Position numbers and translations under genes: made by a program. The notes under the pieces were generated by a model that was not told the origin of the DNA, ran no database searches, and saw nothing but the letters and a program-made list of their open reading frames with translations. 64,000 nucleotides of DNA from Candidatus Onthocola gallistercoris (lineage in GTDB: Bacteria; Bacillota; Clostridia; Lachnospirales; Lachnospiraceae). This document shows, piece after piece, positions 9,034 to 56,872 of the stretch; positions within the stretch are counted from its first letter, which is position 1, and each line of letters opens with the position of its first letter. Location of the stretch: NCBI GenBank assembly GCA_018715345.1, contig DVLT01000038.1, positions 7,614 through 71,613 on the forward strand. Reading direction: 5' to 3'.

Positions 9034-9140
9034 TTTCTCTTATTCAGAACAATGGAGCCTAAGGAGCGATGATATTGTGGCAACCCCTGGGATATGGAAG
9101 GTGCCTGCCTGAGCGAGTAAAATCGAACAATAAGAGGGTT
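9034..9140 (+). promoter_or_regulatory. SAM-I (S-box) riboswitch aptamer
   Basis: P1 arms CTCTTAT (9037-9043) and ATAAGAG (9130-9136). Internal GGCAACC and GGTGCC elements. Located in the metK leader. Confidence 0.75.
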
Positions 9141-10601: not shown

Positions 10602-10979
10602 ATGAATGAAAAAAAGACAAGTCTCGGCTTGATCCTGGTCAGTCTGATCTTTTTTGTCATGTTCCTGTATCTGGATACGCTTTTTCTGGATGCCCGGGAA
10701 CATATGATGACCACCTATCAGTCGGATCGGTTCCTGCGGGTCTATCTTTATGAAGCTCTGCTGTCAGTGATCTTGATCTTTGCTCATTTTCTGGCGGCAC
10801 ATGTGGGCAGAACATTATTTGTCCTGTGGGGTGCAGTGATGAGCCTGCTTATGGCCGGAGGGACTGTCTGGCTGTTTATGCATTTCACATTTGAGGTGCT
10901 TTTAGTACTGACAATGATACACATATCTGCGTGGATCTTCGGCTGGATCAGCCGATGCCGCGGGGAACAGCAATCATAA
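10602..10979 (+). CDS. Small hypothetical membrane protein (about 4 TM)
   Basis: TGGTAAAAT -10 box, G-rich RBS, hydrophobic segments. No recognisable family. Confidence 0.45.
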   Translation: MNEKKTSLGLILVSLIFFVMFLYLDTLFLDAREHMMTTYQSDRFLRVYLYEALLSVILIFAHFLAAHVGRTLFVLWGAVMSLLMAGGTVWLFMHFTFEVLLVLTMIHISAWIFGWISRCRGEQQS

Positions 10980-23939: not shown

Positions 23940-26492
23940 ATGAAAAGACATAAAAAGATCATAGGGATCACAGGATTTTATATATTATCTTTTATCGTGG
24001 CTGTTTTTTTATTCGGATATATTTTAAATTACAGCAGTACCCATCCGGCCAGAGGCCAGGGCTCCACTTCGCTGGCAAAACTCAGCGTGAAAAGCAGCGG
24101 TATGGAGTTGAACAAGATGTACGGTTTTGCCCAGGAAATGTCTCAGGAATATTTGCGTACATGCATTACCCCTGTTTCGGATAATCAGACGATCGTGCTG
24201 AAAGTGGAAGAAGGGGACAGCGCGGTGGACAGTATCCGTTATATCCTTTATGACGATACCGGTGAGAACGAACTGGAAAATGGAGAATGTGAAGCGATCC
24301 AGTGGGTCGAAGGGGAAAAGCAGACCCAGCTTCGGCTGAACACCGGGTTGGATCGGCGGGAAGAGTATTGCCTGAAATTGATCGTGAGAGATGAAAATGG
24401 TGAAGAATATAACTATTATACCCGTGTGATCAGCGGTTCCGATGTGCTGGCTTACGATAAGCTCCAGTTTGCCTTGGATTTTCACAGCGCGACCTTCCAA
24501 AAGGAATCTGCAGAACGACTTGCCGATTACCTGGGGGTTTACGACAGCACTTACGGCAGAGATTTCCGCCATGTCAACCTCCATTCCGGAAGCGATCTGA
24601 TCACCTGGGGTGAGTTGGCTCCGGTGATCGAAGGCGATGTGGATATCACCATCAAAGGCCTGGACAGGCAGTCGGCCCAAATCCAGCTTATTTATACCGT
24701 GTCTGCGACGGATGATGAGGGAAAAAGTTATGAATATATGGTGACAGAACTGTATGATGTCGTTCAGTCCGGCAGCGATATACGGCTGTCGGATTACAGT
24801 CGGACCATGGAGGAGAAGCTGGATCGGACATCCTTTATCTTTTCGGATGATCAGCTCCGGGTCGGCATGATCGATGAGGACAGTCTGGATCTGCATATTT
24901 TCGGCATCCAGGAACCGGAAGTGACGGAGACAGAAACAGCTGCGGAAGGGGAGACAACAGCAGAGGATACCATCGAATATAACACTTATATCAGTTTTGT
25001 GGGTGATGGACGCCTGTGGGTATATAACACAAAAGACAACATTCTGAACCAGGCATTTTCCTTTGAAGGGGATACGCCGTCCGATACCCGGGATGCCAGT
25101 TATCTGAACCATGGCATACGGGTGATCCGGACAGAGGACAACGGCGATATGTTTTTTATCGTTTATGGCTATATTTATAATGGGACCGGAGAAGGCCATT
25201 TTGGTATTCAGGTGAATGAATATTCCATGCAGGATAACACGTCCTCGGAACTGCTTTTTATTCCTTATGACAAGAGTTTCCAGATGCTGCGTCAGGATAT
25301 TGAGACAATGGCCTTCATGGATGGCAATGGTCAGTTATATTTGTGTCTGGAAGATACATTGTATTGTTTTGACGTATATATGAAAACCTATGAAACAGCC
25401 TTTGAGCAGGTCCTGGAATCCGGATGCGATATTTCCGGCAGCGAACAGAGTTTCGTATATGCGGACAATCCGGATGGGGACGGTAAGGCCGAAAACCTCA
25501 TCTGGATGGATCTGGAAACCGGCGAGAGCAAAACCATCTCATCAGAAGGACGATTGGAAAAACAGATCGGTTTCCTGGAGAGTGATTATGTGTATGGCGT
25601 CTACAGCAGTGATGGATCCCGTATGGAAAGCTTGCGTGTTGTGGATGAAGATCTGAATATTGTGAGAGAATATACAGTGGATAACGGTTATATCACCGAT
25701 GCGCAGATACAAGATACGGTTCTGACGATCCACCGGGCAGACAACAGCGGCCAGACTATGGCAGACGATTTCATTTTGAAATACGACAGTTCCGGTCAGG
25801 TGATCAACGCCCAAACGATCAGCGCGGGAGAACGTATGCAGGAAACGGCGATCGCCACAAATGAATATGGTTATGATACGCCGATCGTCCAGACTGCCAG
25901 AGTTGTGGTCGCCTATCGGGATACGACGATGGATTTTTCTTTGGGCGACCAGGAGTTTGCCGGTTTTTACGTATATAATCAGGATCGTCTGCAAAAGTTC
26001 AATACCTTTGCCCAAGCATATACGGCGGCTCTGGCCAATGGGGGCAAGGTGGAGGACAGCAGCGGAAAGACGATCTGCCATCCCAATACAGTCAATGAGA
26101 CGGATCTGGACGGTTATGAGATCGCCCAGTCAGATACACAAGAAGGCCAGATGCAGGCAGTGATCCAGTGGCTGATGACCTATGAGTCCCAGGAGGGGAC
26201 TCCGGCGATCGACACAACAGATATGGCAGAAGCAATGTCAGCGAATCTGCCGAATGTCCATGTGGTGGATATGACAGGCATCGGGTTGGATGACGCTCTG
26301 GCCATGGTGACGGAAGGTTATCCTCTGGTGGTAAAAAATTCCGAGGGCCGCTGGTGCGTTGTGGAAGGCTATACAAACGGTTACATTATCATCGCGGACC
26401 CGGGCGACGGTACGGTTTCGGGCTATGAAGAGGCCTATGCCATCGCGGGTATCGCGTCATCGGGCAATGTGATCTACAGCTATTACCGATAA
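23940..26492 (+). CDS. Large hypothetical membrane-anchored extracytoplasmic protein
   Basis: One N-terminal TM segment followed by about 800 acidic residues that look beta-rich. The C-terminal ~110 aa are vaguely like a papain/C39 fold, but without a clear Cys/His pair. Confidence 0.45.
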   Translation: MKRHKKIIGITGFYILSFIVAVFLFGYILNYSSTHPARGQGSTSLAKLSVKSSGMELNKMYGFAQEMSQEYLRTCITPVSDNQTIVLKVEEGDSAVDSIRYILYDDTGENELENGECEAIQWVEGEKQTQLRLNTGLDRREEYCLKLIVRDENGEEYNYYTRVISGSDVLAYDKLQFALDFHSATFQKESAERLADYLGVYDSTYGRDFRHVNLHSGSDLITWGELAPVIEGDVDITIKGLDRQSAQIQLIYTVSATDDEGKSYEYMVTELYDVVQSGSDIRLSDYSRTMEEKLDRTSFIFSDDQLRVGMIDEDSLDLHIFGIQEPEVTETETAAEGETTAEDTIEYNTYISFVGDGRLWVYNTKDNILNQAFSFEGDTPSDTRDASYLNHGIRVIRTEDNGDMFFIVYGYIYNGTGEGHFGIQVNEYSMQDNTSSELLFIPYDKSFQMLRQDIETMAFMDGNGQLYLCLEDTLYCFDVYMKTYETAFEQVLESGCDISGSEQSFVYADNPDGDGKAENLIWMDLETGESKTISSEGRLEKQIGFLESDYVYGVYSSDGSRMESLRVVDEDLNIVREYTVDNGYITDAQIQDTVLTIHRADNSGQTMADDFILKYDSSGQVINAQTISAGERMQETAIATNEYGYDTPIVQTARVVVAYRDTTMDFSLGDQEFAGFYVYNQDRLQKFNTFAQAYTAALANGGKVEDSSGKTICHPNTVNETDLDGYEIAQSDTQEGQMQAVIQWLMTYESQEGTPAIDTTDMAEAMSANLPNVHVVDMTGIGLDDALAMVTEGYPLVVKNSEGRWCVVEGYTNGYIIIADPGDGTVSGYEEAYAIAGIASSGNVIYSYYR

Positions 26493-41182: not shown

Positions 41183-41228
41183 TAAAGACAAAAAAAGCGT
41201 ATAAAAGTACAAAAAATAAGTCGAATCC

Positions 41229-41287
41229 GGACAGAAAATGACAGAATCCGGACACATCATTCCAAAGGGATAAATATATGATACAAT
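41229..41287 (+). promoter_or_regulatory. Promoter P1 with a tripartite direct-repeat operator (candidate LytTR site)
   Basis: GGACA (41229) N6 GACAG (41240) N5 GGACA (41250), then 27 nt, then TGaTACAAT with -10 at 41282-41287. The wider 11-mer GAATCCGGACA is repeated with 21-bp periodicity. Confidence 0.55.
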
Positions 41288-41302: not shown

Positions 41303-42028
41303 ATGGGGGAAAACATGAGAATAGCAGTTGTGGATGACGAACCCTTTTTCCAGGAGGAAATCATACGATGTCTGAAGGAGAGCGGGAGAAAACTGGGGAT
41401 ACGGATGAGTATCGAAAGTTTTGATTCGGCAGAGCAGCTGCGCCGGGAGATTAGGGAAACCGGAACCTTCAGCGCCTATTTTCTGGATTACAGTCTGGAA
41501 GGGGAGAATGGTTTTGAACTGGCCCAGTATCTGAACCGTCATGGCGAGCATCCGTATATCATCTTTGTCACTTCCTATGACGGGATGGCGGTGGATGCTT
41601 ACCAGCTGGATGCGTTCCGGTTTATTCCAAAGCTGGAAATGGAATCGCGGATCGAAGAGGCTGTAACAAGTATATACAGGGAATGTCAGCCGGGAAACCG
41701 GCGGTATTATATCCTGGTAACCAGAGATCGGATCGATCGGGTGGATTACCGGGATATCCTGTATTTCAAAAAGGATGGACGATATACCCAGCTGCGGACG
41801 GCCAGACATTGGGTCAGTATCCGCAAATCTCTGAAGGAAATATGGGACGAGCTGCCGCCGGAAGAATTTGTTTTTGTCAACAAAAGCTGTATTGTCAATC
41901 TGAGCCATACAGTGGGTGTCCAGGAACGGTATGTGATCCTGAGCAGCCGGGAGGAGCTGCCCATCAGCCGCTCCCAGTACAAACCCGTCAGAGACAAGAT
42001 TTTTGAATACTGGCAGGCGAAAAGATGA
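41303..42028 (+). CDS. LytTR/AlgR-family response regulator (RR1)
   Basis: Receiver domain (IAVVDDE, FLDYSL) and C-terminal LytTR domain (ILYFKKDGRYTQL...FVFVNKSCIVNL). GGAGG lies 8 nt before ATG 41303. Confidence 0.85.
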   Translation: MGENMRIAVVDDEPFFQEEIIRCLKESGRKLGIRMSIESFDSAEQLRREIRETGTFSAYFLDYSLEGENGFELAQYLNRHGEHPYIIFVTSYDGMAVDAYQLDAFRFIPKLEMESRIEEAVTSIYRECQPGNRRYYILVTRDRIDRVDYRDILYFKKDGRYTQLRTARHWVSIRKSLKEIWDELPPEEFVFVNKSCIVNLSHTVGVQERYVILSSREELPISRSQYKPVRDKIFEYWQAKR

Positions 42029-43335
42029 GTCTATTTTACGCAATTTGGGAATTTGTATATTGTTTTGCAGAACTGTTTGTCACATGGCGGCTGTTGTCGG
42101 CCATTTTTCTCCTTCCCCATCGTGTGAGGGAGGATTGGAAGGCGTTTCTCTGGTTCGTGCCCCTGGGGATCATTCAGGGCGTGAATGCCCAGGGTGTTAT
42201 GATGTCCATCGCCATATTGTATATCAATATCGCCTATATGACTGTCCTGTATGTGAAAAAGGCGGAGACGGATAAAAAGGATGTGCTGCTGATCGTGGCA
42301 ACCGTGTGCAGTTCATTCTATCTGTTCCGGCTGGCGACGATACATTTGATCGGATTTTTATTGGATATCGGGGAGTTTGGCCGATATCTTTACATGGAGC
42401 ATAGTATTGAACGGCTTTTGGTACAGCTATTCCAAATAGTATGCCTGGCCATTTTAAGCGGAGGTTTGACGCATCATTTTGAAAAGTCGCCTTTTGACAT
42501 GGAATGCTGGCGTTGGACATTGCTTTTGGTAACAGTGACAGAGAATCTGGCTGTCATTTATTTTCAAGGGATTTTTATTAATTACCAGTGGAAGGATATC
42601 CTACAGGATGTTTTGTTGCTGTCCTTTGTGCTGCACATACTGGCAACACTCGTTCTGGCCAAGTTCCAATGGCGGTATCAGAAGATGCGGCTGGACACGG
42701 CGGACATACGGAATGCGGAGATACTGGACAAGTATCACCAGTTGGAAGAAGTGCAGAAGGCACAGGCGTCCATGCTCCATGACTTGAGGAATTATCTGGT
42801 GGTCTTAAACGGGGAGATCAGCATGGGTAACCGGGAAGCGGCCAAAAGGACGCTGAGAGATATCATAGATACTGTGCCCAACGTGGAACCTAAAACCTAT
42901 ACCGGCCACGGCGTCATCGACTGGCTGCTCCGGGTAAAAAGCGCGGAGGCGGCGGAAAAGGGCGTGGAGATGTTCATCGCCGGCGATAAGGTGGGCGAAC
43001 TGGCCATCACCGAACTGGAGATATGTACGCTGCTGGGTAATCTTTTGGACAATGCGGTGGAAGCGGCCCAGAAGGCTCCGGAGAAATGGGTGGATGTGGA
43101 GATCTGGCGGGAAAAGGATCTTTTGTTCCTGAATGTGGGCAACAGTCTGGCGGAGCCGCCAAAGCAGAGTGGAAGGTATTTCCTCACCTCCAAGCAGGAC
43201 AAGATGCACCATGGCATCGGCCTGAGAAATGTGGACCGGGTGGTGAGAAAATATAGCGGCAAGCTGAACTTCAAAGTGGACGAGGAACGGTTTGACGCGG
43301 AAGTCATATTAAATGCGAAAAGGAGACAGGAATGA
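42025..43335 (+). CDS. AgrC/HPK10-type membrane histidine kinase (GHKL)
   Basis: 6-7 N-terminal TM helices. H-box MLHDLRNYL, N-box LLGNLLDNAVEAA, G-box HGIGLRNV. ATGA overlap with the RR1 stop. Confidence 0.8.
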   Translation: MSLFYAIWEFVYCFAELFVTWRLLSAIFLLPHRVREDWKAFLWFVPLGIIQGVNAQGVMMSIAILYINIAYMTVLYVKKAETDKKDVLLIVATVCSSFYLFRLATIHLIGFLLDIGEFGRYLYMEHSIERLLVQLFQIVCLAILSGGLTHHFEKSPFDMECWRWTLLLVTVTENLAVIYFQGIFINYQWKDILQDVLLLSFVLHILATLVLAKFQWRYQKMRLDTADIRNAEILDKYHQLEEVQKAQASMLHDLRNYLVVLNGEISMGNREAAKRTLRDIIDTVPNVEPKTYTGHGVIDWLLRVKSAEAAEKGVEMFIAGDKVGELAITELEICTLLGNLLDNAVEAAQKAPEKWVDVEIWREKDLLFLNVGNSLAEPPKQSGRYFLTSKQDKMHHGIGLRNVDRVVRKYSGKLNFKVDEERFDAEVILNAKRRQE

Positions 43336-43481
43336 TGAGAGAACAGAACATGGACAGGATCAACGTGGAAGAAGTGAAAAGTGAAATGGAACAGATGAAA
43401 TCTTTCAAAAACGCAGAGATTGAGCCGAGAATGTCTATTACAGTTACATGTACAGCACTCTTTACAGTTATCTGCTGTTGA
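43332..43481 (+). CDS. Lanthipeptide precursor peptide (LanA-like), 49 aa, absent from the ORF track
   Basis: AGGAGA at 43321-43326. The ATG overlaps the kinase TGA. Translation: MMREQNMDRINVEEVKSEMEQMKSFKNAEIEPRMSITVTCTALFTVICC. A LanM gene starts 87 nt downstream. Confidence 0.8.
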   Translation: MMREQNMDRINVEEVKSEMEQMKSFKNAEIEPRMSITVTCTALFTVICC

Positions 43482-43491
43482 TCGAATAGTC

Positions 43492-43531
43492 AAAAAGGGA
43501 TAAAAATCCGCTGATTTTTATCCCCTTTTTG
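43492..43531 (+). terminator. Intercistronic hairpin/terminator between precursor and lanM
   Basis: Perfect 12-bp stem: GGGATAAAAATC (43497-43508), loop CGCT, GATTTTTATCCC (43513-43524). Followed by CTTTTTG. Confidence 0.75.
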
Positions 43532-43568
43532 TTACCATAAAGATTTTATTGGATGTTGGGGGAACGTT

Positions 43569-46559
43569 ATGTTTGATAAAAGACAAAGTTATCTGAATGA
43601 GCGGATCTACAAAAAGCATGAGGGAGGTGTGCGGACGCCGGAGTTATGGAAAGAGCTGTTTGGGGATGCATCATGTCAGATGATCGAAAACCGTTATCCA
43701 CAGGTGCGCGCCTATTTTGCCCAGGAACCCTATACAGTGGAAGAGGGTTGGCCGGATGCTTGCGACGGAAAGATCTTTACCCTGTATCAGCACGGGTTTT
43801 ATCACGGAAAAGCCCAATGGAATAAAGAAGTATTTGACAGCTTCTACATTCCATGGCTGAGCACGGCCAGGGAATATTTCCGATACATTTATCCGGACAG
43901 CAGACAGGATACGGCCTTTTTTACGGAGGGTTTGCCAGGATTCCGAAAAAAGATGGTCACTTTGTCTTTAAGGGTACTGATCCAGGAGATGAAAGTCTGG
44001 GGCGATGATGGGGAATCGGGAGAACTATACCAACGATACAACGAGGATGCCTTAAAGGATGAGATTTATGTCGATCAACTGTATGAAAAATATCCGGTCA
44101 TGCTGCGGGAATTGATCCGGTGTGTTCGTCAGACATGTGAATCCATCAAAGAATGTTTGGAATATCTGGAAAAAGACCGGGGGGAGATCTGCCAAAGGCT
44201 GCTGGGAGGCCGTTCCTTTGGAAAAGTAACAGTAGTCAAAGATGCTTTGGGCGATACCCATCATAATGGGCGATCCGTACTGGAACTGACCTTGGATACA
44301 GGAGATAAACTGATCTATAAACCCCATAACCTGGAGCATGAAGCGTTTTATCAAGAGATGACCCATATTTTATCAGAAGGCTGTCGGGTGGAAACCTATG
44401 TCCGACCCATTATTTGCCGGGAAGATCACGGATGGGAAAAACAGATCGAAGCTTCTTCATGTGGGACCCGGGAAAACGTACAGGATTATTACTACCGGAT
44501 GGGTATCCATCTGTTTAGCGCCTGGCTGTTTTCTGTAAAAGATCTGCATTACGAAAATATCATTGCCATGGGAGTTTATCCGGTTTTTGTGGATACAGAA
44601 GCGCTGTTGGTGCCGGAACGAAAGGGGGATCCGGAGCTTTTGTTCGAAGTGGAACGGTGGAAGAATCAGTCGGTCCTTGCCACCTGTCTGCTGCCTTCCC
44701 GGACTCCCGGTTTTGGAAGGGATATCAGCGGCATCTGCGGAAGCGGCGGAAAAAGCTGCCTGAAAACCCCCACAGTGCTGGATCCTGGAACCGGGAAGAT
44801 GCGCATGGGGTATGCCATGGGAGATATGGCGGAAGGCAAAAACATCCCCCGAACGCCAAGGGGATATGAGGTTCCAGAAAACTTTGCGGATGAGATTGAA
44901 AAAGGATTCACAGATGCTTTTCAGTATGCCTTGTTTATCAAGTCCCGGCTGATGAAAGCCGTGGAGGATCGGAAGGATATAAAGGGACGGTATCTATACC
45001 GATATACCCAGGAATATACATTAAATCTGTGGAGTTCCTATAACCCTTTGTTTTTATCAGATGGGGGTATGCGCCACATGTTTCTCATGAACATGGCAGA
45101 GAATAAGGAAAGCCAAACGATCCGCCGGATCAATGATCTGGAAATCGAGCAGATGCTTGGCGGAGACATTCCCTATTTTACGGCGGATTCCCTGGATACC
45201 GGCTTGCATGATCCTAAAGGGGAGATGGTGGAAGGGTGGTTTGCGGAAACGCCAAAGGCGATGGCGGCCCGCCGGATCTGCCGACTGTCAGAGCAGGATA
45301 TGGGAAATGAACGGACGGCGATAAGGGAAGCTTTTGACCGGAATTTTTCCCTCAACGATATGGTATGTACGGCAGAAACGGACAGGGAAACAGTCGTACG
45401 TTGGATACTGGAAAAAATCGATGGGGAAAAGATCCTCCTGCATGATGGCAGCGTGGCCTGGGTACAGAAAGACTACAGCGCCGAAGGCCAGGGGGCAAGG
45501 ACTACGGATATATTAAGCATGAACCTGTATGACGGTATCGGCGGGATCGCCTTGTTCATTGCCGCCGGCTGGAAAGTGCTCAAAGACGACAGACTTCGGC
45601 AGATGATGGATGTGTTGAGACAGACATTATTTGCCTATACGGATCAGATGATGCAGTTGGAGCGAAAGAGCAAGACCGGCGCTTTCGGCGGTGAGGCATC
45701 CATTGTCTATACCTATCATCTGTTGTATAAGATCACAGGAGAAAAGATCTATCTCACCTATAGCCAGCGACATGTGAAGATACTGGAACGGTATATAGAA
45801 ATGGACGACTGGTATGATGTGGTGGATGGAAATGCAGGAGCCATCCTTGTGCTTTTAAATCTTTACGAGGAGACGGAAAAGGGGCGTTATCTCCGGGATG
45901 CCATTAAAGCCGGCATATGTCTGCTTGAGCACCATGTGGAGCAGCAGCAGGGGATCGCCTGGAAAAACAAAGCGTCCGGTCAGATGTTGGCAGGCTTTTC
46001 CCACGGCGACAGCGGAATGTTCCTGGCATTGTCCCGGCTGTATCATCATACCGGTGATGAAGGCGTTCTGGATGTGTTAAAGCAGATCCGGGAACATGAG
46101 ATGTCACTGTATGTGGAAGAAGTGGACGACTGGCTGGATCTTCGGGGAAAGACGCCCGAAGTGCGGGAAACGGTGGCCTGGTGCCACGGCGCGGGCGGTA
46201 TCCTTTTGTCCCGCCTGAAAAGCTATCCCTATCTGACGGGAACGTTGAAGGAAGAGGTGGCGAAAGATATCCATCGGGCAGCCCAAAAGGCGGCGGTTGG
46301 CCATATACGGAAGGACTTCTGTCTCTGCCACGGCAATTTCGGGAACCGATGGATCCGGGATGCCTATAGGCTTTTTTCAGGAGAGACCGGGACAGAAAAA
46401 CCGGTGTCCGACCTGTTGATAGAAAAGATCCGAGAGCATGGGCTGGAAGCGGAAGAAAGCCGGCGTTACAGTCTGATGCACGGCCTGGCCGGCATCGGCT
46501 ACGGCCTGCTGCGGGAGATGGATCCGTCCCTGCCGGATATACTGGCAGTGGAAGTGTAA
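43569..46559 (+). CDS. lanM: Class II lanthipeptide synthetase LanM
   Basis: 996 aa. N-terminal DUF4135-type dehydratase region. C-terminal LanC-like cyclase with GFSHGDSG, WCHGAGG and CLCHGNFG (Zn-ligand and catalytic His motifs). Confidence 0.9.
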   Translation: MFDKRQSYLNERIYKKHEGGVRTPELWKELFGDASCQMIENRYPQVRAYFAQEPYTVEEGWPDACDGKIFTLYQHGFYHGKAQWNKEVFDSFYIPWLSTAREYFRYIYPDSRQDTAFFTEGLPGFRKKMVTLSLRVLIQEMKVWGDDGESGELYQRYNEDALKDEIYVDQLYEKYPVMLRELIRCVRQTCESIKECLEYLEKDRGEICQRLLGGRSFGKVTVVKDALGDTHHNGRSVLELTLDTGDKLIYKPHNLEHEAFYQEMTHILSEGCRVETYVRPIICREDHGWEKQIEASSCGTRENVQDYYYRMGIHLFSAWLFSVKDLHYENIIAMGVYPVFVDTEALLVPERKGDPELLFEVERWKNQSVLATCLLPSRTPGFGRDISGICGSGGKSCLKTPTVLDPGTGKMRMGYAMGDMAEGKNIPRTPRGYEVPENFADEIEKGFTDAFQYALFIKSRLMKAVEDRKDIKGRYLYRYTQEYTLNLWSSYNPLFLSDGGMRHMFLMNMAENKESQTIRRINDLEIEQMLGGDIPYFTADSLDTGLHDPKGEMVEGWFAETPKAMAARRICRLSEQDMGNERTAIREAFDRNFSLNDMVCTAETDRETVVRWILEKIDGEKILLHDGSVAWVQKDYSAEGQGARTTDILSMNLYDGIGGIALFIAAGWKVLKDDRLRQMMDVLRQTLFAYTDQMMQLERKSKTGAFGGEASIVYTYHLLYKITGEKIYLTYSQRHVKILERYIEMDDWYDVVDGNAGAILVLLNLYEETEKGRYLRDAIKAGICLLEHHVEQQQGIAWKNKASGQMLAGFSHGDSGMFLALSRLYHHTGDEGVLDVLKQIREHEMSLYVEEVDDWLDLRGKTPEVRETVAWCHGAGGILLSRLKSYPYLTGTLKEEVAKDIHRAAQKAAVGHIRKDFCLCHGNFGNRWIRDAYRLFSGETGTEKPVSDLLIEKIREHGLEAEESRRYSLMHGLAGIGYGLLREMDPSLPDILAVEV

Positions 46560-46648: not shown

Positions 46649-47455
46649 TTGGCAGGCAGCAGAATCGTGTCTGAAAATCAAGCATACACAGAAGGTCAGA
46701 AACTGCCCGGATATCTGAAGATCGGGATTGTGGACGATGAAGTTTATTTCCAGGAACAGATATATGGCATTTTAAAGAAATGTGAAAAATGTTTAAAAAT
46801 CCGCATGGATATCCGGATATTTTCTTCGGCAGAGGAGCTGATGGAAAGTCTGAATGAGAAAGAAATATTTACAGCCTTTTTTCTGGATTATCGTCTGGGC
46901 GATGACAATGGTTTTGCGCTGGCAGAAAAGATCCAAGCCTTTTTACCGGATGCTTTTTTGATCTTTGTCTCCTCTTACTCGGAAAAAGTATTTGATGCGT
47001 TTCGGCTGAAAGCTTTTCGATTTATCCCCAAAACGGATATGGAAAAACGTATAAGCGAGGCTATCGGGTCGATTTACCGGGAATTGGAAAGCGTGAATAC
47101 GGCATATTATGTGGTGGCAACGGGCCAGGGAATGGAACAGATCTGTTTCAGGGATATACTTTATGTCCGTAAAGAAGGCAAATACAGTGTGATCGTGACC
47201 AAGGCGGGTGAAAGACGTGTGAGAAAATCGCTGAAGGAGATTTCCGGGGAATTGCGGGAAAACGAATTTGCCTATACGGCAAGAGATTATATTGTTAATC
47301 TGGAGCATATATCCGGTTTTTCCGGCAATGATGTGATCTTGGAAGACGACTGTTTGATTCCGGTAAGCAGAGAGAGGAGAAAGGACCTAAAACAAAAAAT
47401 TTGGGACTATTACGAACAAAAGAGGAAGGAATCGAAAAATAGAAATAAAAATTAG
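46649..47455 (+). CDS. LytTR-family response regulator (RR2), paralog of RR1
   Basis: IGIVDDE, FLDYRL and a LytTR domain (ILYVRKEGKYSVI...YIVNLEHI). There is no in-frame ATG before the receiver domain. Candidate starts are TTG 46649, GTG 46667 and ATT 46643, all poorly spaced from AGGAGA (46623-46628). Confidence 0.75.
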   Translation: MAGSRIVSENQAYTEGQKLPGYLKIGIVDDEVYFQEQIYGILKKCEKCLKIRMDIRIFSSAEELMESLNEKEIFTAFFLDYRLGDDNGFALAEKIQAFLPDAFLIFVSSYSEKVFDAFRLKAFRFIPKTDMEKRISEAIGSIYRELESVNTAYYVVATGQGMEQICFRDILYVRKEGKYSVIVTKAGERRVRKSLKEISGELRENEFAYTARDYIVNLEHISGFSGNDVILEDDCLIPVSRERRKDLKQKIWDYYEQKRKESKNRNKN

Positions 47456-47472
47456 AAAGATACGGTATTCAA

Positions 47473-47531
47473 GGACAAAAAAAGACAGTTGGAGGACAAT
47501 CCTCTGCGAATTTTTTAGAAACTGTTATACT
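47473..47531 (+). promoter_or_regulatory. Promoter P2 with the same tripartite operator as P1
   Basis: GGACA (47473) N6 GACAG (47484) N5 GGACA (47494), then 27 nt, then TGtTATACT with -10 at 47526-47531. Confidence 0.55.
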
Positions 47532-47640
47532 GGAACCAACGAATGAAGCTGGCTTATTCAAAAGATTTAAGGGGGGCGATACCGTTGGGGATGGAACAAT
47601 GGAAACTGCAGACAATCAGAAAAGGGAGGAGAGGAAGAGT

Positions 47641-48057
47641 ATGAGGAAAAGGATATCAGCTATTCTAATGACAAGCTTAGTGGCTTTTTTGACAATCAGC
47701 CAGTTTGGGGGAAATGCTTTTGCGGGGAATATTTCAGATACGGAATATTACTTTTCAATTGATTACGCTTTAGACACAAGAGATACACCGGCACGGACAA
47801 AATATGATGATACTTCACATTATATGTATCCAAACCGTTATATTAATCAGTCATATGTTGCTTGGGGAGTTGGATGCGCTTGGAATGGTACTGAAATTGA
47901 AAGTTATGATGAACTTGCGATAACGATTACAGGACCTTACGAATATTATATTCCGAATTATTGTTATGAAAATGATAGACCAATGGCGCGAGTAAGAGCA
48001 TATTCTTATTATGATGATTTATCAGTGGCTGGTGTATGGAGCCCAGATAGTATTTAA
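47641..48057 (+). CDS. Small secreted Tyr-rich protein of unknown function
   Basis: GGGAGGAGAGGA RBS. Sec signal MRKRISAILMTSLVAFLTISQFGGNAFA with predicted cleavage before GN. The mature protein is about 110 aa with 17 Tyr and 2 Cys. The gene is visibly AT-richer than its neighbours. Confidence 0.6.
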   Translation: MRKRISAILMTSLVAFLTISQFGGNAFAGNISDTEYYFSIDYALDTRDTPARTKYDDTSHYMYPNRYINQSYVAWGVGCAWNGTEIESYDELAITITGPYEYYIPNYCYENDRPMARVRAYSYYDDLSVAGVWSPDSI

Positions 48058-48103
48058 CAAAATGTGTATAAAGTATACATATGAAAGTTATAAAAAATCT
48101 GAA

Positions 48104-48124
48104 GGGGTCTTTATTTAAGACCCC
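48104..48124 (+). terminator. Weak hairpin after the secreted-protein gene
   Basis: GGGGTCTT, loop TATTT, AAGACCCC. The T tract that follows is poor (TCTCTG). Confidence 0.35.
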
Positions 48125-48152
48125 TCTCTGAGAAACTGTTGGAGGTGAAATT

Positions 48153-48914
48153 TTGAGAAGAATATGCGGTATATTGGCCGTGGTACTTTCCTTTTTTACC
48201 CTTGGGTGCGCCTGTTCCGCTCCGGCGGACACGGAAACGGAGAGTCCGGCTCAGACCAACTATGTGGCAGAAGCGCATAAAGGGGAGACAACGGACGTGT
48301 TGCTTGAGGACGGCGGGGGGCCCCGGGGGGAACAGCCGGAGGAGATCATGCCGGAAGCAAAGCTGTTTGATCAGGAACAGCAGGTGAGAAACGGTGATAT
48401 CCAGTTGACCTTTCAGACGATCACCTATTATGACAATGTGGACGAATCAGGGATACAGTTGGGTGAAGATGCGGAAAATTACTGGATCCGCTATGATGTG
48501 ATCGATGAATCCGGCCAGTGCCTGGATCATGCGCGTATTGCCATGGCACAGGTAAACATCGCCAACCTGTCGGAGAAGGCGGAAACCATCAGCCTGATGG
48601 AATTTAACCTTCGGTTTTATGAGCCGGACACGGGGAACGCTTCTGTGACACGGGAAGTGGGTTATGCCGATCCGCTCCAGTCCAATGACGATCCAAAGAA
48701 GATGTATGAATATACGTTTGAACCGGGAGAAGATGTGGATTTCACTTTAGGTTATGTATTAAGAAGTGAGGATGTGGAAAGGATGGAAAAGGGAGAGCTG
48801 ATTCCCACCATGGAAGTGAACAACCGGGGATATCTTCCCACAGAGGAGATGACGAAGGATCATCTGGATGAAATGGCTTACATAGAACTTCCGATTCCGG
48901 AGGAAGAACCATGA
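48153..48914 (+). CDS. Putative lipoprotein (LanI-like position)
   Basis: TTG start after GGAGGTG. Signal peptide ending FFTLGCAC (lipobox-like), then an acidic extracytoplasmic domain that looks beta-rich. Confidence 0.55.
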   Translation: MRRICGILAVVLSFFTLGCACSAPADTETESPAQTNYVAEAHKGETTDVLLEDGGGPRGEQPEEIMPEAKLFDQEQQVRNGDIQLTFQTITYYDNVDESGIQLGEDAENYWIRYDVIDESGQCLDHARIAMAQVNIANLSEKAETISLMEFNLRFYEPDTGNASVTREVGYADPLQSNDDPKKMYEYTFEPGEDVDFTLGYVLRSEDVERMEKGELIPTMEVNNRGYLPTEEMTKDHLDEMAYIELPIPEEEP

Positions 48915-49741
48915 GAAAGATGATAAAGACAGAATTGCGCAGGGCCTTCTGCAACCGGACGTTTTTTGTCATCCTCGGGCTTGGGCTGGCTTTTGTCATA
49001 TGGCATACCGTCCAATACAAAATACCCTATACCCGGTCGCTGGGAGTGAGTTATCACGGGGAAGAGCTCTATCCTCATAATGTATATCAGGAATGTATTC
49101 TTGGCAACAGTATGAGTGTTCATGCTTATATTTACAGCATGTGCCTTCCCATATTGGCGGCGCTCCCCTTTGGCGCGTCTGCCTGCCAGGATCGGCAGAG
49201 CGGATACCGGGATCAGATCCTGACCCGGACAAAACGGAGCACATATTACCAGGCAAAATGGATTGCCGCCTTTCTTTCCGGCGCGGCGGCGGTTGTCCTT
49301 CCGATGATTTTTGATTTTATTGTGACCCTGTGGTTTTTTCCGACGCTGCCCGGAGACAGTATGAGCCGTTGGGACAGTGTGGGGATCGATGGGATGATGG
49401 CAGAAATTTATTATCATATGCCCATGGTATATATGCTGGCAAAGTGGATGTTCCTGGCTGCTTTTGGCGGTATTTTCGCAACAATGTCGCTGACTGCGGG
49501 GATGTTCGCAAAAAATATGGTTGTCGTACTGTTGACACCGGTCCTTGTCCAACTTTTATATAATTCGGCGACATCGTATCTGAATGCCCGGAACTGGCAG
49601 TTTATGGCGTATTATACGGTTTATCAGCCGTTGTTTTCCATGCGGCTGTGGAAACCTGTTCTGGTGGGCGGCATCATGCTGCTTATCTGCCTGCTTTTAT
49701 ATTGCCGGAAGGCAAGCGTGAAGGACGCGTTAAATACATAG
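48911..49741 (+). CDS. ABC-2-type transporter permease
   Basis: Six hydrophobic segments. 4-nt overlap with the upstream gene. Immediately precedes an ABC ATPase gene. Confidence 0.6.
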   Translation: MRKMIKTELRRAFCNRTFFVILGLGLAFVIWHTVQYKIPYTRSLGVSYHGEELYPHNVYQECILGNSMSVHAYIYSMCLPILAALPFGASACQDRQSGYRDQILTRTKRSTYYQAKWIAAFLSGAAAVVLPMIFDFIVTLWFFPTLPGDSMSRWDSVGIDGMMAEIYYHMPMVYMLAKWMFLAAFGGIFATMSLTAGMFAKNMVVVLLTPVLVQLLYNSATSYLNARNWQFMAYYTVYQPLFSMRLWKPVLVGGIMLLICLLLYCRKASVKDALNT

Positions 49742-49753
49742 GAGGGGATTCAT

Positions 49754-50419
49754 ATGTATGTGGAGTTGAAAGATGTTTCCAAGCAGATCCGTCGCAGCCC
49801 GATACTGAACCATATAACGGTGGGATTTGAAAAGGGACGCATATATGGCCTGAAAGGAAAAAACGGATCCGGAAAGACCATGCTTTTGCGCATGATCGCC
49901 GGTCTGATCCTTCCAAGTTCCGGCCAGGTGCTGATCGATGGAAAAATACTTGGAAAAGATATGTCCTTTCCTGAGAGTATCGGCATACTTATCGAAAATC
50001 CGTCCTTTATAGGCGGCGAAACGGGGCTTTCCAATCTATCCATTCTGGCGTCTATTCAGAAAAAAGCGGATCGGAAAGATTTGGAAGAAACTCTTGAACG
50101 GGTGGGGCTGAATCCCGGGGATAAACGGATTTACAGAAAGTACTCCCTCGGCATGAAGCAGCGGCTGGGTATCGCGGCGGCGATCATGGAAAAACCGGAT
50201 ATCATCCTTCTTGATGAACCGATCAATGCCCTGGATGACAAAGGGGTGGAAGCGGTACGGCAGATACTGGCAGAAGAGAAGAAACGGGGAGCGCTGATCA
50301 TCGTTGCCTGTCATGATGAGACAGAACTCCGGCTGCTTTCAGATGAGATTTTTTATATGCAGGGCGGAGAGATCACAGACCATGAGATACTGGAGAAGGA
50401 ACGGGAGGATAAGCCGTGA
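49754..50419 (+). CDS. ABC transporter ATP-binding protein
   Basis: Walker A GKNGSGKT, signature YSLGMKQR, Walker B IILLDEP. Confidence 0.9.
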   Translation: MYVELKDVSKQIRRSPILNHITVGFEKGRIYGLKGKNGSGKTMLLRMIAGLILPSSGQVLIDGKILGKDMSFPESIGILIENPSFIGGETGLSNLSILASIQKKADRKDLEETLERVGLNPGDKRIYRKYSLGMKQRLGIAAAIMEKPDIILLDEPINALDDKGVEAVRQILAEEKKRGALIIVACHDETELRLLSDEIFYMQGGEITDHEILEKEREDKP

Positions 50420-50961
50420 GATATAAATATTTGTGGACGGCTGTGGCCGTCATCTTTGCTGTGACCGGCATCATCGCGGCGGTACGGAGCGTACAGCTGA
50501 ACCATCAATATCCCGTTCCCAGGAACGTGATGGTTTCGGAGAATACACCGGCAGAAAAGAACGGATGCGCCATTACAGTGACGGACAGCGTCCTGGAACC
50601 GCTGGCGGATGACATGGAAGATCTGCCTGTGGGCGAACCGATATATATGGTCAAGGCATCGCTGCGGATCGAGAATATCAGTGACTATGACAGCAGCATC
50701 TATCTGACAGATTTCGGATTACAGTCGGATATATGGTATAACCAGATGAGCCGGCACGAGACGACGGTGCTGAATCCGGAACTGGAATCCGCCGTCATAA
50801 CTTTACATCCGGGAGAATCCGAAGAAATCGTGCTTCCTTTTATGATATATTGGGACAGGGGAATGGAAGAAATGGCAAAACAGCTTATGGCGGGCGAGGC
50901 AGATTTGGATCTTGTCATCACTCAGTATCCGGTCAAACGGTTCTGCCGGCTGTCTTACTGA
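50416..50961 (+). CDS. Membrane-anchored extracytoplasmic protein, possibly DUF4352-like
   Basis: One N-terminal TM segment and a C-terminal domain that looks beta-rich. 4-nt overlap with the ATPase gene. Confidence 0.45.
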   Translation: MRYKYLWTAVAVIFAVTGIIAAVRSVQLNHQYPVPRNVMVSENTPAEKNGCAITVTDSVLEPLADDMEDLPVGEPIYMVKASLRIENISDYDSSIYLTDFGLQSDIWYNQMSRHETTVLNPELESAVITLHPGESEEIVLPFMIYWDRGMEEMAKQLMAGEADLDLVITQYPVKRFCRLSY

Positions 50962-50979
50962 CAGAAAAGAAGTGAAAAG

Positions 50980-51615
50980 ATGGGTAATAAAAAGATGATC
51001 TGGCTGCTGCCTGTTTTCGGAGCCATCCTGCTTATGGATATCCATCAACGGGCGGCTACATACAATATATTTTTTGCGTCCGATGGCGTTTTGGGATTTC
51101 TGATCTATCTTTCATCCATGGATACGGCGATTTATCCGATCCTGCTCCTTCTGCCAGCATATTTAAGTGTCCGAAGATATTTTCGGCTTGCTGTGATCAT
51201 ACGGAAGAAACATCGGAAAAGACTGGTATGGGAACAGACCAGAAACCTGATGCTGTTGGCGGGGCTGTTTTCGCTTTTGTATACAGCGCTTGCCTTCAGA
51301 GAAGTTTTAGGTAGACTGTGGCAGCCGGTGCCTGCAGAAGTATGGTTCCTGTTTTTGATCTTTAATTTTTTTAAACAGTCTTTTTTTATGCAGGTTTTTC
51401 TTCTGTGCCGGTGGATCAGCGGACACTATATACCGGGCATCCTTCTGGTGATTTGGTGCTGTGTTGCTGCCGCCCGGACGGCTGTGCCGGCTTTTGTATT
51501 CGGAACGATGGAAAAGACGTTGTTTTTCTGCCTGATTTTTTTGATGACGGATACCTTATTGCTGATACTGAATCTGGCAGCGGGGAAAAGATGTGATTTT
51601 ATTGAAAATACGTAA
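50980..51615 (+). CDS. Polytopic membrane protein
   Basis: About 6 hydrophobic segments. No family recognised. Confidence 0.45.
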   Translation: MGNKKMIWLLPVFGAILLMDIHQRAATYNIFFASDGVLGFLIYLSSMDTAIYPILLLLPAYLSVRRYFRLAVIIRKKHRKRLVWEQTRNLMLLAGLFSLLYTALAFREVLGRLWQPVPAEVWFLFLIFNFFKQSFFMQVFLLCRWISGHYIPGILLVIWCCVAAARTAVPAFVFGTMEKTLFFCLIFLMTDTLLLILNLAAGKRCDFIENT

Positions 51616-52435
51616 AAAAAGCAGCCTGAGCGGAATGATCCGTTATGATATGGCCCAGGGAATATGGAAAAATATCGGCTGGTTTTTGCCGGTGGTTTAC
51701 TTTACTTTCGCGTTCTTTGCGAAAACACGGCAGATGCTGGCTCTGCCCTTTGCCCCTCCGGTGGATAAGATGGGGCTGACAGATCTGGTTTTTTCATTTT
51801 TTGCCGGTATGGAGACATATCATCCGGGTCCCGGGCAGATGTTTGATCCGCCCATCCAGTGGCTGCTTGTCTTTTTTTATCTTTCTTTTCTCATCAGTTT
51901 CTATCCCGCCGCGGATATGAAAAAATATGGGCGGAATCTGATGATCCATGTCAAGAGCCGGGAAGTTTACTGGTACAGTAAATGTCTGTGGGTTTTTGCG
52001 ACAACCATGGTTTATTATGGACTGATCCTGCTTTTGATGGCCATTTTTCTTTTGATGACCGGAAACTATTCACCGGGGTTTCATAAAGATACAGGGGCAT
52101 TTCTGGCCGGTGTGATCGTTGGTCCGGAAACGGGAGCAGAGATTTGTTTTTTCATCCTGGTGACACCTTTTCTGGTCATGCTTTCTTTGGCCCTGTTCCA
52201 GAATCTGCTGAGTTTCGTGCTGTCGCCGGTTTACGGATTTTTGGTCAATATCGGTTTGGTCATCTGTTCGGCGTTTTTTAATACCAGTCTATGCGTGGGG
52301 CAGATTGCCATGTTCAAGAGAAGTTTTATTTTGGGCGGAAGTGTGGGATGGCCCCATCTGGTCATACCGATACTGCTCTCTGTACTCAGCATCCTGGCAG
52401 GCGGTATGTATTTTAAACGAAAAGATATCCTGTAA
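51593..52435 (+). CDS. Polytopic membrane protein (ABC-2 permease-like)
   Basis: About 6 hydrophobic segments. Overlaps the upstream gene. Confidence 0.45.
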   Translation: MILLKIRKKSSLSGMIRYDMAQGIWKNIGWFLPVVYFTFAFFAKTRQMLALPFAPPVDKMGLTDLVFSFFAGMETYHPGPGQMFDPPIQWLLVFFYLSFLISFYPAADMKKYGRNLMIHVKSREVYWYSKCLWVFATTMVYYGLILLLMAIFLLMTGNYSPGFHKDTGAFLAGVIVGPETGAEICFFILVTPFLVMLSLALFQNLLSFVLSPVYGFLVNIGLVICSAFFNTSLCVGQIAMFKRSFILGGSVGWPHLVIPILLSVLSILAGGMYFKRKDIL

Positions 52436-54736: not shown

Positions 54737-55753
54737 TCAGGATAAGGCTTTCCGGATGCGGATATCATCGCCCACCAGGAGAAGGATATCATAGTAGCTG
54801 ATGATCCGGGCAAAGATACGTTCGCTATAAATGTCCTGGATCTCTTCCAAAGAGAGATTCGTTGATATGATCGTGGATTTTTTACGAAGCTGTCTTTCAT
54901 TGATACATAAAAACAGCTGGGAAATGGTAAAGGTGTTGGTCATCTCGGTCCCGAGATCGTCGATGATCAACGCGTCACAATCCATCAGCGCGTCAAATAA
55001 TGCGTTTTCGGAAAGATCTTCAGAAGTTTCCGGAGATCCAAAAGTGTGAGTCTCAAATATTTCGATCAATTCAAAAGATGTAAGGTATAATACGGTTTTG
55101 GACTGATCCAGCAGTTCTTTGGCGATACAGTGGGTGAGAAATGTCTTGCCTACCCCGGTCTTGCCATAGATAAAAAGGTTGGAAGGCTGGTCGTCAAAGT
55201 GACGGATAAATTCCCGGCATCGATCCAAAATATCTTCCATATTCCGGCGAGGGCTGATCCCCAGTTTTTTATCTTTTTCCACAGGATAGTAGTCCAGATT
55301 AAATGTGGAAAAGTTCTCTTCTTCCAGTAATACGCCAAGATTGGAATGGATGGCCAACTCAGCGGATACGGCGGCCTGGAAACAACGGCATTTCTGTCCG
55401 TCATGCCAGCCGGTATCCTGGCAGAGGGGACACTGATAGCGCATGTCTGCGTAGTCCTCAGGGAAACCGTACTCCCTGAGCAGTTCTTTCTGCCTGCTTT
55501 GCAAAGTCTCGGTATGCTCCCGGAGAGACGAGATCAGCGCCTGACTGTCGGAAGAAACATTGCCAGCTGTTCCCAGAGCCCGCTGGCGGGCTGCCGATGC
55601 ACAGGCGGCGACAATATCGCTTTCGATACGGCCATATTCAGGGATCTTATCATAAATCTCACGTATACGTATCTGCTGATCCCGGCGATCTTCGGCCTGG
55701 ATCTGATCATAATGGCGCATGATGGCTTGATACAGAGAATTATTTAACGACAT
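54737..55753 (-). CDS. DnaC/DnaI-like helicase-loader ATPase
   Basis: Cys-rich N-terminal region (CPLCQDTGW...CRC), Walker A GKTGVGKT, Walker B LIIDDLG. Confidence 0.75.
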   Translation of the reverse strand: MSLNNSLYQAIMRHYDQIQAEDRRDQQIRIREIYDKIPEYGRIESDIVAACASAARQRALGTAGNVSSDSQALISSLREHTETLQSRQKELLREYGFPEDYADMRYQCPLCQDTGWHDGQKCRCFQAAVSAELAIHSNLGVLLEEENFSTFNLDYYPVEKDKKLGISPRRNMEDILDRCREFIRHFDDQPSNLFIYGKTGVGKTFLTHCIAKELLDQSKTVLYLTSFELIEIFETHTFGSPETSEDLSENALFDALMDCDALIIDDLGTEMTNTFTISQLFLCINERQLRKKSTIISTNLSLEEIQDIYSERIFARIISYYDILLLVGDDIRIRKALS

Positions 55754-55780
55754 AAACGCACTCCTTTATCAGATGAGATA

Positions 55781-56872
55781 TCAATCTTTAGGACGGACGG
55801 AAGCGTGGAGCTTCTCAGCCAGTTTCTTTTCAATATCATCATAATCATATGTACGCTGCTTGAAATGGGTAAAACGGTTGGGAGCCGGAGCCGGTTTTTT
55901 CGGCTGTCCGGCGCTGGATGAAGCCCCGCCTTTCTTTCTGGACTTTTCATGGATCGTATCCAGGACCTTTATATCTTGCATGGAAGAAACCTTCTGATCA
56001 TGCCACCGTGTCAGTATGGAATCGGCATATTTAAAACTGGCTGCATGGGTATTCTGTATGGTCCTGCGGCAGGCTTCGGTGATGATGTCCTGGGTAAAGC
56101 CATACTCCCGGTTCCATCTGCGGATATACTTCAGTTCCTCGTCGGCGAGAAAACGGCCGCTGATCCCAAATGCTTTGATAACGCTCTGGTTCAGCTGGTT
56201 ATAGATCATGCTGCGTTCCTTTGCCTGTTCCACTGTATCGATATGGTCCTCTTTCCAGGAAATGGCCACGGTTTCAATGTAGCTGAACTTCCGATGACCG
56301 CCGGAAATACAATATTCAAATAGATATTCGATCAGATCTGTGGAAAAGCCCAGGTCTTTATAAAAAAAGACGATCGTATTCATCTCTGGCTGGCTCAGGG
56401 GCCGGCCCATGTACTGCTGGATGATGAAGATCAGCTGGTCTCCGTTCTGATGATCCATGAAATCGTTGATCTCGGACATGGGATAGGTGGGCTTGACGAT
56501 CGGACTGTTCCCTGCTGTGTCCCGGGGAACCGGATGGTTTTCACGGGGTGGGGCAGCAGAAGCGTCCGGCGCTTTCAGCTCGATCTGACAGAGTGTACCC
56601 TGATCCCAGGATAAGGCAAGAAGCCCCTTCTTCTCCCAAAAGAGGAGGGCACGCAGGACATCGTTCTCTGTAAGGCAGAAAATATCAGCCATCTTTTCAG
56701 AAGAAATGTCTGCGGATGTATCCTGGCTCCAACGAAGTAAATATAGATAGATCTTTACAAATTCCCCATTGGCATCCGTCATGTCATGATCGATAAAATC
56801 ATTGGAAATGACAGTTGAACCTGACGGTATGCGGTTGGTCAGATGTATGGCGGTCATAACTCCACTCCCCAT
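55781..56872 (-). CDS. DnaD-domain replication initiation protein (Firmicute DnaB/DnaD type)
   Basis: N-terminal winged-helix-like region (FVKIYLYLLRW) and DnaD-type repeats (ELKYIRRWNREYGF). Sits directly upstream of the DnaI-like gene. Confidence 0.7.
   Translation of the reverse strand: MGSGVMTAIHLTNRIPSGSTVISNDFIDHDMTDANGEFVKIYLYLLRWSQDTSADISSEKMADIFCLTENDVLRALLFWEKKGLLALSWDQGTLCQIELKAPDASAAPPRENHPVPRDTAGNSPIVKPTYPMSEINDFMDHQNGDQLIFIIQQYMGRPLSQPEMNTIVFFYKDLGFSTDLIEYLFEYCISGGHRKFSYIETVAISWKEDHIDTVEQAKERSMIYNQLNQSVIKAFGISGRFLADEELKYIRRWNREYGFTQDIITEACRRTIQNTHAASFKYADSILTRWHDQKVSSMQDIKVLDTIHEKSRKKGGASSSAGQPKKPAPAPNRFTHFKQRTYDYDDIEKKLAEKLHASVRPKD

Follow-up and report, generated by a model that had tools for sequence, protein, structure and literature searches.

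What does the 49-codon open reading frame (ORF) between a histidine kinase gene and a lanthipeptide synthetase gene of Candidatus Onthocola gallistercoris encode, and what might its product do? The locus lies within 64,000 nt of contig DVLT01000038.1 (assembly GCA_018715345.1, positions 7,614 to 71,613 of the forward strand), hereafter the window, whose coordinates are used throughout (Table 1). Our analysis, which is based on sequence, shows that the ORF is a real, conserved gene. It very likely encodes LanA, a class II (LanM-dependent) lanthipeptide precursor belonging to a small, undescribed family of uncultured Lachnospiraceae-type bacteria. The peptide gene is the last cistron of an Agr-like regulatory operon, and its product is probably an autoinducing peptide and possibly also a bacteriocin.

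The ORF had been proposed from the DNA letters alone in an earlier reading (the original prediction), and rereading the sequence reproduced exactly its bounds, its translation (MMREQNMDRINVEEVKSEMEQMKSFKNAEIEPRMSITVTCTALFTVICC), the start-stop overlap and the AGGAGA ribosome-binding site (RBS). The ATG of lanA shares two bases with the stop codon of the 436-aa kinase ORF (TGA, 43333-43335), giving ATGA, and a second ATG follows immediately, so that a 48-aa product is equally possible; the alignment of the ortholog at a related species' locus (L011) to the window peptide begins at M2. The N-terminal 33 residues are highly charged, and the last 16 contain three Cys and five Ser/Thr, again as predicted. 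As the peptide contains no Gly at all, it has no GG, GA or GS site, in agreement with the same reading. A 198-aa ORF on the opposite strand (42897-43493), which overlaps the kinase gene and matches no family, was treated as spurious.

Relatives of LanA were sought by word-based and exhaustive profile hidden Markov model (HMM) searches of public protein collections. The resulting family is small, comprising five variants of 84-96% identity (P0001-P0005), a 56% ortholog (P0006) from the metagenome-assembled genome of an uncultured Lachnospiraceae, and three distant members (P0012, P0013 and P0014). The identical product is called intact on 17 public metagenome contigs. Moreover, lanA is present in all 18 fetched related loci that contain the peptide, and LanM adjoins it wherever the locus extends downstream (L001/L011, L016, L005, L018 and L002). 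The P0006 locus retains the order of response regulator, histidine kinase, peptide and LanM seen in the window, with 63% identity in LanM and 61% in the kinase, and shares the window's flanking chromosomal genes (sulfatase, metallophosphoesterase and AAA ATPase). At L016 the order kinase-peptide-LanM and the core motif persist at 29-31% LanM and 25-28% kinase identity to the window, and at L015 a kinase of this type again lies upstream of the peptide gene. In one relative's locus the gap between the peptide gene and lanM is 23 nt and holds no terminator.

Codon-level comparisons of lanA gave a dN of 0.096 and a dS of 0.62 between the window and L005, and a pN of 0.205 and a pS of 0.815 between the window and L011 (nonsynonymous and synonymous divergence, respectively), which shows that the frame is under purifying selection. 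Conservation and the pattern of synonymous substitution were among the checks that the original prediction had proposed: the ORF is conserved in relatives with pN far below pS. Disruption of the ORF beside an intact LanM, which was to count against it, was seen in none of the fetched loci that have a LanM gene, whether complete or cut by a contig end. Long repeat proteins returned by the exhaustive HMM search (P0007-P0011) were discounted as low-complexity matches; the sole one of them that was read, P0010, consists of tandem repeats rich in Glu, Ala and Gln, and the others show 5-10 separate matched stretches each. No LanA relative turned up when JGI metagenome contigs were scanned with the core pattern, and neither the peptide nor its profile had a meaningful match in Pfam, NCBIfam or PDB sequences. 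A literature search with LanA peptide strings found none, nor did searches of the supplements to Walker 2020, on lanthipeptide mining, and to the Hungate1000 paper on bacteriocins.

The synthetase encoded next to lanA appears competent. LanM aligns over its whole length with LicM2 (PDB 6st5), and its dehydratase motifs (DLHYENIIA and VDTE, corresponding to DxHxEN and D-x-E) and Cys/His zinc-ligand motifs (WCHGAGG and CLCHGNFGN) are intact. No second candidate precursor, in the form of a small Cys- and Ser/Thr-rich ORF, was found in the cluster or the window. Across nine variants the LanA core follows the consensus [ST]-I-T-[VAF]-[TL]-C-T-x-[LVF]-[FL]-[TS]-x-[IVT]-C-[CG], in which I36, T37, C40, T41 and C48 are invariant and every variant has Ser or Thr at positions 35 and 45. 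Eight of the nine end in CC, the other (P0004) in ICG. The cores are 15-18 residues long, contain no Lys or Arg, and have a grand average of hydropathy (GRAVY) of 1.4-2.0. The leaders diverge strongly between lineages, retaining an acidic E-x-x-x-E-L/M stretch. From these sequences we have high confidence that LanA would be a substrate of the adjacent LanM. The original prediction of a lanthipeptide-type precursor is thus supported by the intact LanM, by an adjacency kept down to ~30% LanM identity and by the invariant ring residues.

The junction between leader and core carries a basic residue (EPR|M, EPR|A, EPK|T, ALR|S and QER|G), with Arg or Lys lying 0-3 residues before the core in all six lineages; in P0014 the Lys is three residues further upstream. 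A Pfam scan of the cluster ORFs and 32 other ORFs of the 64 kb (the largest and the immediate neighbours of the cluster) detected no C39 peptidase-ABC (ATP-binding cassette) transporter (LanT), no subtilisin-like S8 protease (LanP) and no AgrB. These data favor the earlier suggestion that the junction, with Arg at P1, would suit a trypsin-like or otherwise unlinked protease, and we hold cleavage after Arg33 by an unlinked trypsin-like enzyme with moderate confidence. The leader had also been called atypical. That description holds for the missing GG-type site and the lack of LanT and LanP among the scanned ORFs, and needs refining for the N-terminal part, whose E-V-x-x-E-L/M stretch gives it a weakly supported resemblance to class II leaders. 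The Pro-Arg of the window (positions -5 to -1 are E-I-E-P-R) was also considered as a NisP/LanP-type site. The cleavage motif of NisP is (Ala/Gly-5)-(Ala-4)-x-x-(Arg-1) (PMC10885120), of which only Arg-1 fits. The assignment was rejected because of the misfit at -4 and -5 and because the family does not conserve Pro at P2; the scanned ORFs also included no S8 protease. The misfit at -4/-5 and the unconserved Pro suggest only a generic trypsin-like specificity.

Lanthipeptide proteases encoded outside their clusters are common (PMC8960859), and gut Lachnospiraceae provide precedents for protease-free clusters of RiPPs (peptides made on the ribosome and modified after translation) matured by trypsin, namely nisin O of Blautia obeum (PMC11811420) and ruminococcin C (RumC) of R. 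gnavus (PMC6760926). Both share with the lanA locus the absence of a cluster-encoded leader protease, an Arg/Lys junction and a Lachnospiraceae host; nisin O, moreover, has two RK systems (PMC11811420), and the lanA locus likewise has an extra regulator, a second response regulator. However, nisin O is a class I lanthipeptide (LanBC) and RumC a sactipeptide, their regulators are not Agr-like, and trypsin cleavage is demonstrated for them and inferred for LanA.

Alignment of six near-identical strains located a sharp hot spot of diversity over the core. Whereas lanM differs from the window at ~0.65% of bases (20/2991 in L005), the 51 nt of core plus stop differ at 20 positions in L005 (binomial p 2e-30) and at 10 in L018 (p 2e-12). 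Nucleotide diversity (π) is 0.010 at the 3' end of the kinase gene, 0.040 in the leader, 0.225 in the core, 0.138 in the intergenic region and 0.006 at the 5' end of lanM. The hot spot starts at codon 33/34, which is the proposed cleavage junction R33|M34 and thereby gives independent support for the leader/core boundary. Synonymous divergence of the core is very high (pS 0.78 vs 0.02 in lanM), so that the core types look like old alleles exchanged as cassettes with their ring-forming residues held constant. This pattern suggests that the mature peptide is under diversifying or balancing selection.

In every lineage with visible context, lanA is the last cistron of an operon of a LytTR-type response regulator and an AgrC-like histidine kinase. 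This coupling to an Agr-like two-component system, along with the hypervariability of the core, had been missed by the original prediction. The operon is preceded by a GGACA-N16-GGACA box within the GAATCCGGACA repeat, which has a 21-bp period and lies upstream of the regulator gene; no other perfect pair exists in the window. The window holds three copies of GGACA-N16/17-GGACA where 0.17 would be expected, and two of these boxes are intergenic, before the regulator gene and before the secreted-protein gene at 47599. L011 has GGACA boxes at both corresponding places, and L016 has one directly upstream of the peptide gene. All five (two each in the window and L011, one in L016) have a 21-22-bp period, with exactly 27 nt between the second repeat and a TAnAnT -10 hexamer. 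Published LytTR regulator sites lie immediately before the promoter and consist of 9-10-bp repeats separated by 11-12 bp (PMC2766830; PMC4227749), a rule that the five boxes fit. The kinase and regulator themselves fit the LytTR/HPK10 module, with a multi-transmembrane (TM) HATPase_c_5 kinase, a LytTR regulator and repeats of ~21-bp period. Thus lanA appears to be expressed from a promoter of LytTR-bound architecture, presumably that of its own operon's regulator, and a second promoter of apparent LytTR type precedes the secreted-protein, lipoprotein and ABC genes. Read-through of the terminator between lanA and lanM is assumed, as the sequence immediately before lanM showed no box-like repeat.

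The arrangement resembles the modules of pheromone, HPK10 kinase and LytTR regulator found at loci for class II bacteriocins and competence (Sil, Blp, Com and Pln, for example). There too an AgrC/ComD-type kinase and a LytTR regulator are encoded in the operon of the peptide gene, and the promoters carry two direct repeats of 21-22-bp period (PMC2766830). Those pheromones, in contrast to the presumed LanM substrate LanA, are unmodified, have a double-glycine leader and are exported by a C39-ABC transporter; the order regulator-kinase-peptide also sets the lanA operon apart.

Taken together, these features suggest the following cycle. The promoter with its two GGACA-containing direct repeats would drive the regulator-kinase-lanA operon, and the strong hairpin after lanA would let only part of the transcripts continue into lanM. 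LanM would bind the charged 33-residue leader, dehydrate the conserved Ser/Thr 35, 37, 41 and 45, and join them to C40, C48 and C49 in as many as three thioether rings. By analogy with lacticin 481 and salivaricin A, a ring pattern of 35-40, 37-48 and 41-49 seems likely, and we hold it with moderate confidence. The propeptide might be exported by the ABC system of the cluster, a step in which we have low confidence, and a trypsin-like protease from outside the cluster, either host trypsin or an unlinked bacterial enzyme, would remove the leader after Arg33. The uncharged, very hydrophobic 16-residue product would then be sensed by the AgrC-like kinase (moderate confidence, from gene context and kinase type), inducing its own operon and the second operon of secreted-protein, lipoprotein and ABC genes. 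The mature peptide may also act as a bacteriocin; as a candidate bacteriocin, its antimicrobial activity is uncertain.

Several observations weigh against a lanthipeptide precursor matured in this way. LanA matches no lanthipeptide HMM (NCBIfam at E <= 1; Pfam at E <= 10 with all seven members scanned), and its profile-profile match to the lacticin-481 group is marginal (hhalign P 0.017, probability 2.7%). Between distant lineages, conservation is higher in the core than in the sensor domain of the kinase, which is unlike the usual private pairs of pheromone and receptor. Furthermore, neither an exporter nor a leader protease can be named for the cluster, and the offset basic residue of P0014 and the unconserved Pro at P2 make the exact cleavage point uncertain.

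Foremost among the alternatives, and in our view rather unlikely, is that LanA is a dedicated quorum-sensing pheromone with no antibiotic role, a thioether-bridged analogue of the autoinducing peptides (AIPs) for which LanM and LanA replace AgrB and AgrD. Consistent with this are the place of lanA at the end of an AgrCA-like operon wherever context is visible, the LytTR boxes before it, and a short, hydrophobic core that lacks both Lys/Arg and the acidic ring-A residue of lipid-II binders, together with an allelic hypervariability resembling pherotypes. LanM-like genes are also known to follow clostridial agr operons (PMC10301443). Against it, a lipoprotein and an ABC cassette like those by which lantibiotic producers protect themselves are co-regulated with lanA, and the core motif is strongly conserved between lineages with only 25-41% kinase identity. 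Moreover, lantibiotics with both signaling and killing roles are many; salivaricin A, for example, is a lantibiotic and an autoinducer of its own locus through SalKR (PMC4162386).

The closest precedent for Agr beside LanM is CA_C0082 of C. acetobutylicum, where an AgrCA-type system likewise adjoins a LanM-family gene, there under quorum control (PMC10301443). LanM-like proteins of this type are short (670-728 aa) and devoid of zinc ligands and dehydratase residues, whereas the LanM of the window is full length and intact; that locus, whose LanM is truncated and catalytically dead, has AgrB and AgrD and no LanA (PMC10301443), whereas the window cluster has LanA and lacks AgrB and AgrD. Compared with AgrD and AIPs, none of the cluster ORFs holds an AgrB domain, and no recognition tail extends beyond the terminal CC of the peptide. 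As a tentative extension, which we judge rather improbable, LanM and LanA would have replaced AgrB and AgrD in an Agr-type circuit, the uncharged tricyclic peptide would be the ligand of the AgrC-like kinase, and the core alleles would be pherotypes within the species; activation by host trypsin would then let the system sense its location in the gut as well as cell density.

It is less likely still that LanA is an ordinary lipid II-binding lantibiotic of the lacticin-481/salivaricin-A type, with the two-component system acting only as a regulator that answers another signal. Lacticin 481 has rings 9-14, 11-25 and 18-26, and its group shares the ring-A motif T-x-S/T-x-D/E-C, with a role for the acidic residue before Cys. 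For comparison the LanA family was aligned to this group, whose SalA1 and streptococcin A-FF22 sequences agree with those in PMC4162386. The weak hhalign match places S-I-T-V-T-C on T-I-S-H-E-C, I-C-C on T-C-C and the leader E-L/M on E-L. LanA resembles lacticin 481 and salivaricin A in having a LanM gene beside the precursor gene, an E-V-x-x-E-L/M stretch in the leader, three Cys, and a core in which [ST]-I-[ST]-x-x-C precedes a final CC, with a spacing that permits the same three-ring topology. However, the column before the ring-A Cys is D or E in the group alignment, whereas the LanA family reads S/T-I-T-V/A/F-T/L-C, with Thr or Leu in that place. LanA also lacks the GG/GA site, LanT and N-terminal linear tail of the group, and its GRAVY of ~1.4-2.0 with zero Lys/Arg far exceeds the ~0.1 of the group. 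The locus differs in turn by its LytTR/AgrC-type regulator with lanA inside the regulatory operon, and no Pfam or NCBIfam lantibiotic model matched even at E = 1-10. The resemblance of the terminal CC to lacticin 481 and ruminococcin A noted in the original prediction is thus one of ring pattern and not of family membership.

We consider it very unlikely that LanA is an unmodified hydrophobic pheromone or small membrane peptide whose adjacency to LanM is coincidental or whose neighbor has another substrate. Such a peptide would go unrecognized by lanthipeptide HMMs, and its gene could well sit in a two-component operon with a terminator before lanM, as observed. The adjacency, however, is kept at ~30% LanM identity, including at the one locus with its 23-nt gap and no terminator, LanM has no other small Cys- and Ser/Thr-rich partner in the cluster or window, and the invariant residues are precisely Ser/Thr and Cys. 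Finally, a chance ORF without product, which the short length and lack of any family match might have suggested, is refuted by in-frame conservation over at least four lineages with pN far below pS and by the presence of an RBS, translational coupling and a terminator.

Class II lanthipeptides are already known, as are proteases encoded outside the cluster and lantibiotics that act as autoinducers, so that a LanM-modified LanA would not be categorically new. The precursor family is undescribed, and it stands out by the position of lanA inside an Agr-like operon, its uncharged, hyper-hydrophobic core and its sharply localized allelic hot spot. If this reading is true, LanA would provide, from uncultured bacteria of the gut, a lanthipeptide scaffold that is compact, uncharged and of unusual hydrophobicity, and a natural case of a lanthipeptide gene built into an Agr-like sensing operon, giving a functional context to the unexplained clostridial agr-LanM linkage. 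The hypervariable core beside a near-identical synthetase amounts to a natural experiment in the substrate tolerance of LanM, and suggests that the specificity of a signal or weapon has diversified from strain to strain. The missing protease and basic junction residue fit an emerging theme of host-trypsin-activated RiPPs in Lachnospiraceae.

Table 1. Features of the lanA locus in window coordinates.
Feature	Position	Strand	Description
LytTR-type box 1	41229-41254	+	GGACA-N16-GGACA; within perfect direct repeat GAATCCGGACA at 41223 and 41244
-10 hexamer	41282-41287	+	TACAAT; 27 nt past box 1
Response regulator	41303-42028	+	Receiver (PF00072) and LytTR DNA-binding (PF04397) domains
Histidine kinase	42025-43335	+	AgrC/ComD-type; ~6 predicted TM segments and HATPase_c_5 (GHKL) domain
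lanA RBS	43321-43326	+	AGGAGA; 5 nt before ATG
lanA ORF	43332-43481	+	49 codons; ATG at 43332, TGA stop at 43479-43481
lanA leader	43332-43430	+	Codons 1-33 (MMREQNMDRINVEEVKSEMEQMKSFKNAEIEPR); nearly invariant in close strains (π 0.04)
lanA core and stop	43431-43481	+	Codons 34-49 (MSITVTCTALFTVICC) and stop; hypervariable cassette
Intrinsic terminator or attenuator	43497-43534	+	lanA/lanM spacer; hairpin with 12-bp stem (43497-43524) then T run; conserved in L011
LanM, class II lanthipeptide synthetase	43569-46559	+	996 aa, full length; TIGR03897, 637 bits; DUF4135 and LANC_like
Second, orphan LytTR response regulator	46649-47455	+	Domain match
LytTR-type box 2	47473-47498	+	GGACA-N16-GGACA; -10 TATACT at 47526-47531; conserved in L011 at 10929-10954
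Secreted protein	47599-48057	+	Rich in Cys, Tyr and Trp; weakly DUF2712-like
DUF5027 lipoprotein	48153-48914	+	Candidate immunity protein; signal peptide with LGC lipobox
Permease-like protein	48911-49741	+	Six TM segments; candidate immunity pump and/or exporter with the ABC ATPase
ABC ATPase	49754-50419	+	Best NCBIfam match is lantibiotic-protection ATPase TIGR03740 (163 bits, short of the model cut-off)
DUF5028-like protein and two polytopic membrane proteins	50416-52435	+	DUF5028-like protein membrane-anchored

Further observations concern the composition and borders of the cluster, whose GC content gave no island signature. Comparison with L005 and L018 revealed two versions of the lanA-lanM spacer (43482-43568), distinguished by a 17-nt insertion together with several substitutions immediately ahead of the lanM RBS, with the terminator hairpin retained in both. 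The orphan LytTR regulator follows lanM in the window and close strains and is missing from L011; it might be a co-activator or an anti-activator. The Cys/Tyr/Trp-rich secreted protein, like its counterpart in L011 (11094-11513), has its own conserved LytTR-box promoter and is a candidate immunity factor or second secreted effector. In L002, a strain whose LanM is 99.1% identical to that of the window and whose core is the same, the region corresponding to 47599-52435 (L002 5050-9521) holds a different downstream cassette (280-aa, 270-aa, DUF5028, 246-aa and ABC genes) resembling that of L011, which suggests that the putative immunity/transport module is exchangeable between strains.

Elsewhere in the window, the third GGACA match (GGACA-N17-GGACA, 23823-23849) lies in a coding region without a -10 at the fixed spacing and was set aside as chance; just downstream of it is an 850-aa ORF (23940-26492, + strand) with no Pfam match at E <= 1e-5. 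A DnaB_2 gene (replication initiation/membrane attachment) and an IstB/DnaA-like ATPase gene, together a helicase-loader pair of the DnaD/DnaI type (54737-56872, - strand), adjoin the downstream border of the cluster. An S-adenosylmethionine (SAM) riboswitch (RF00162, 56.8 bits; 9037-9136, + strand) lies upstream of the S-adenosylmethionine synthetase gene at 9268-10461.

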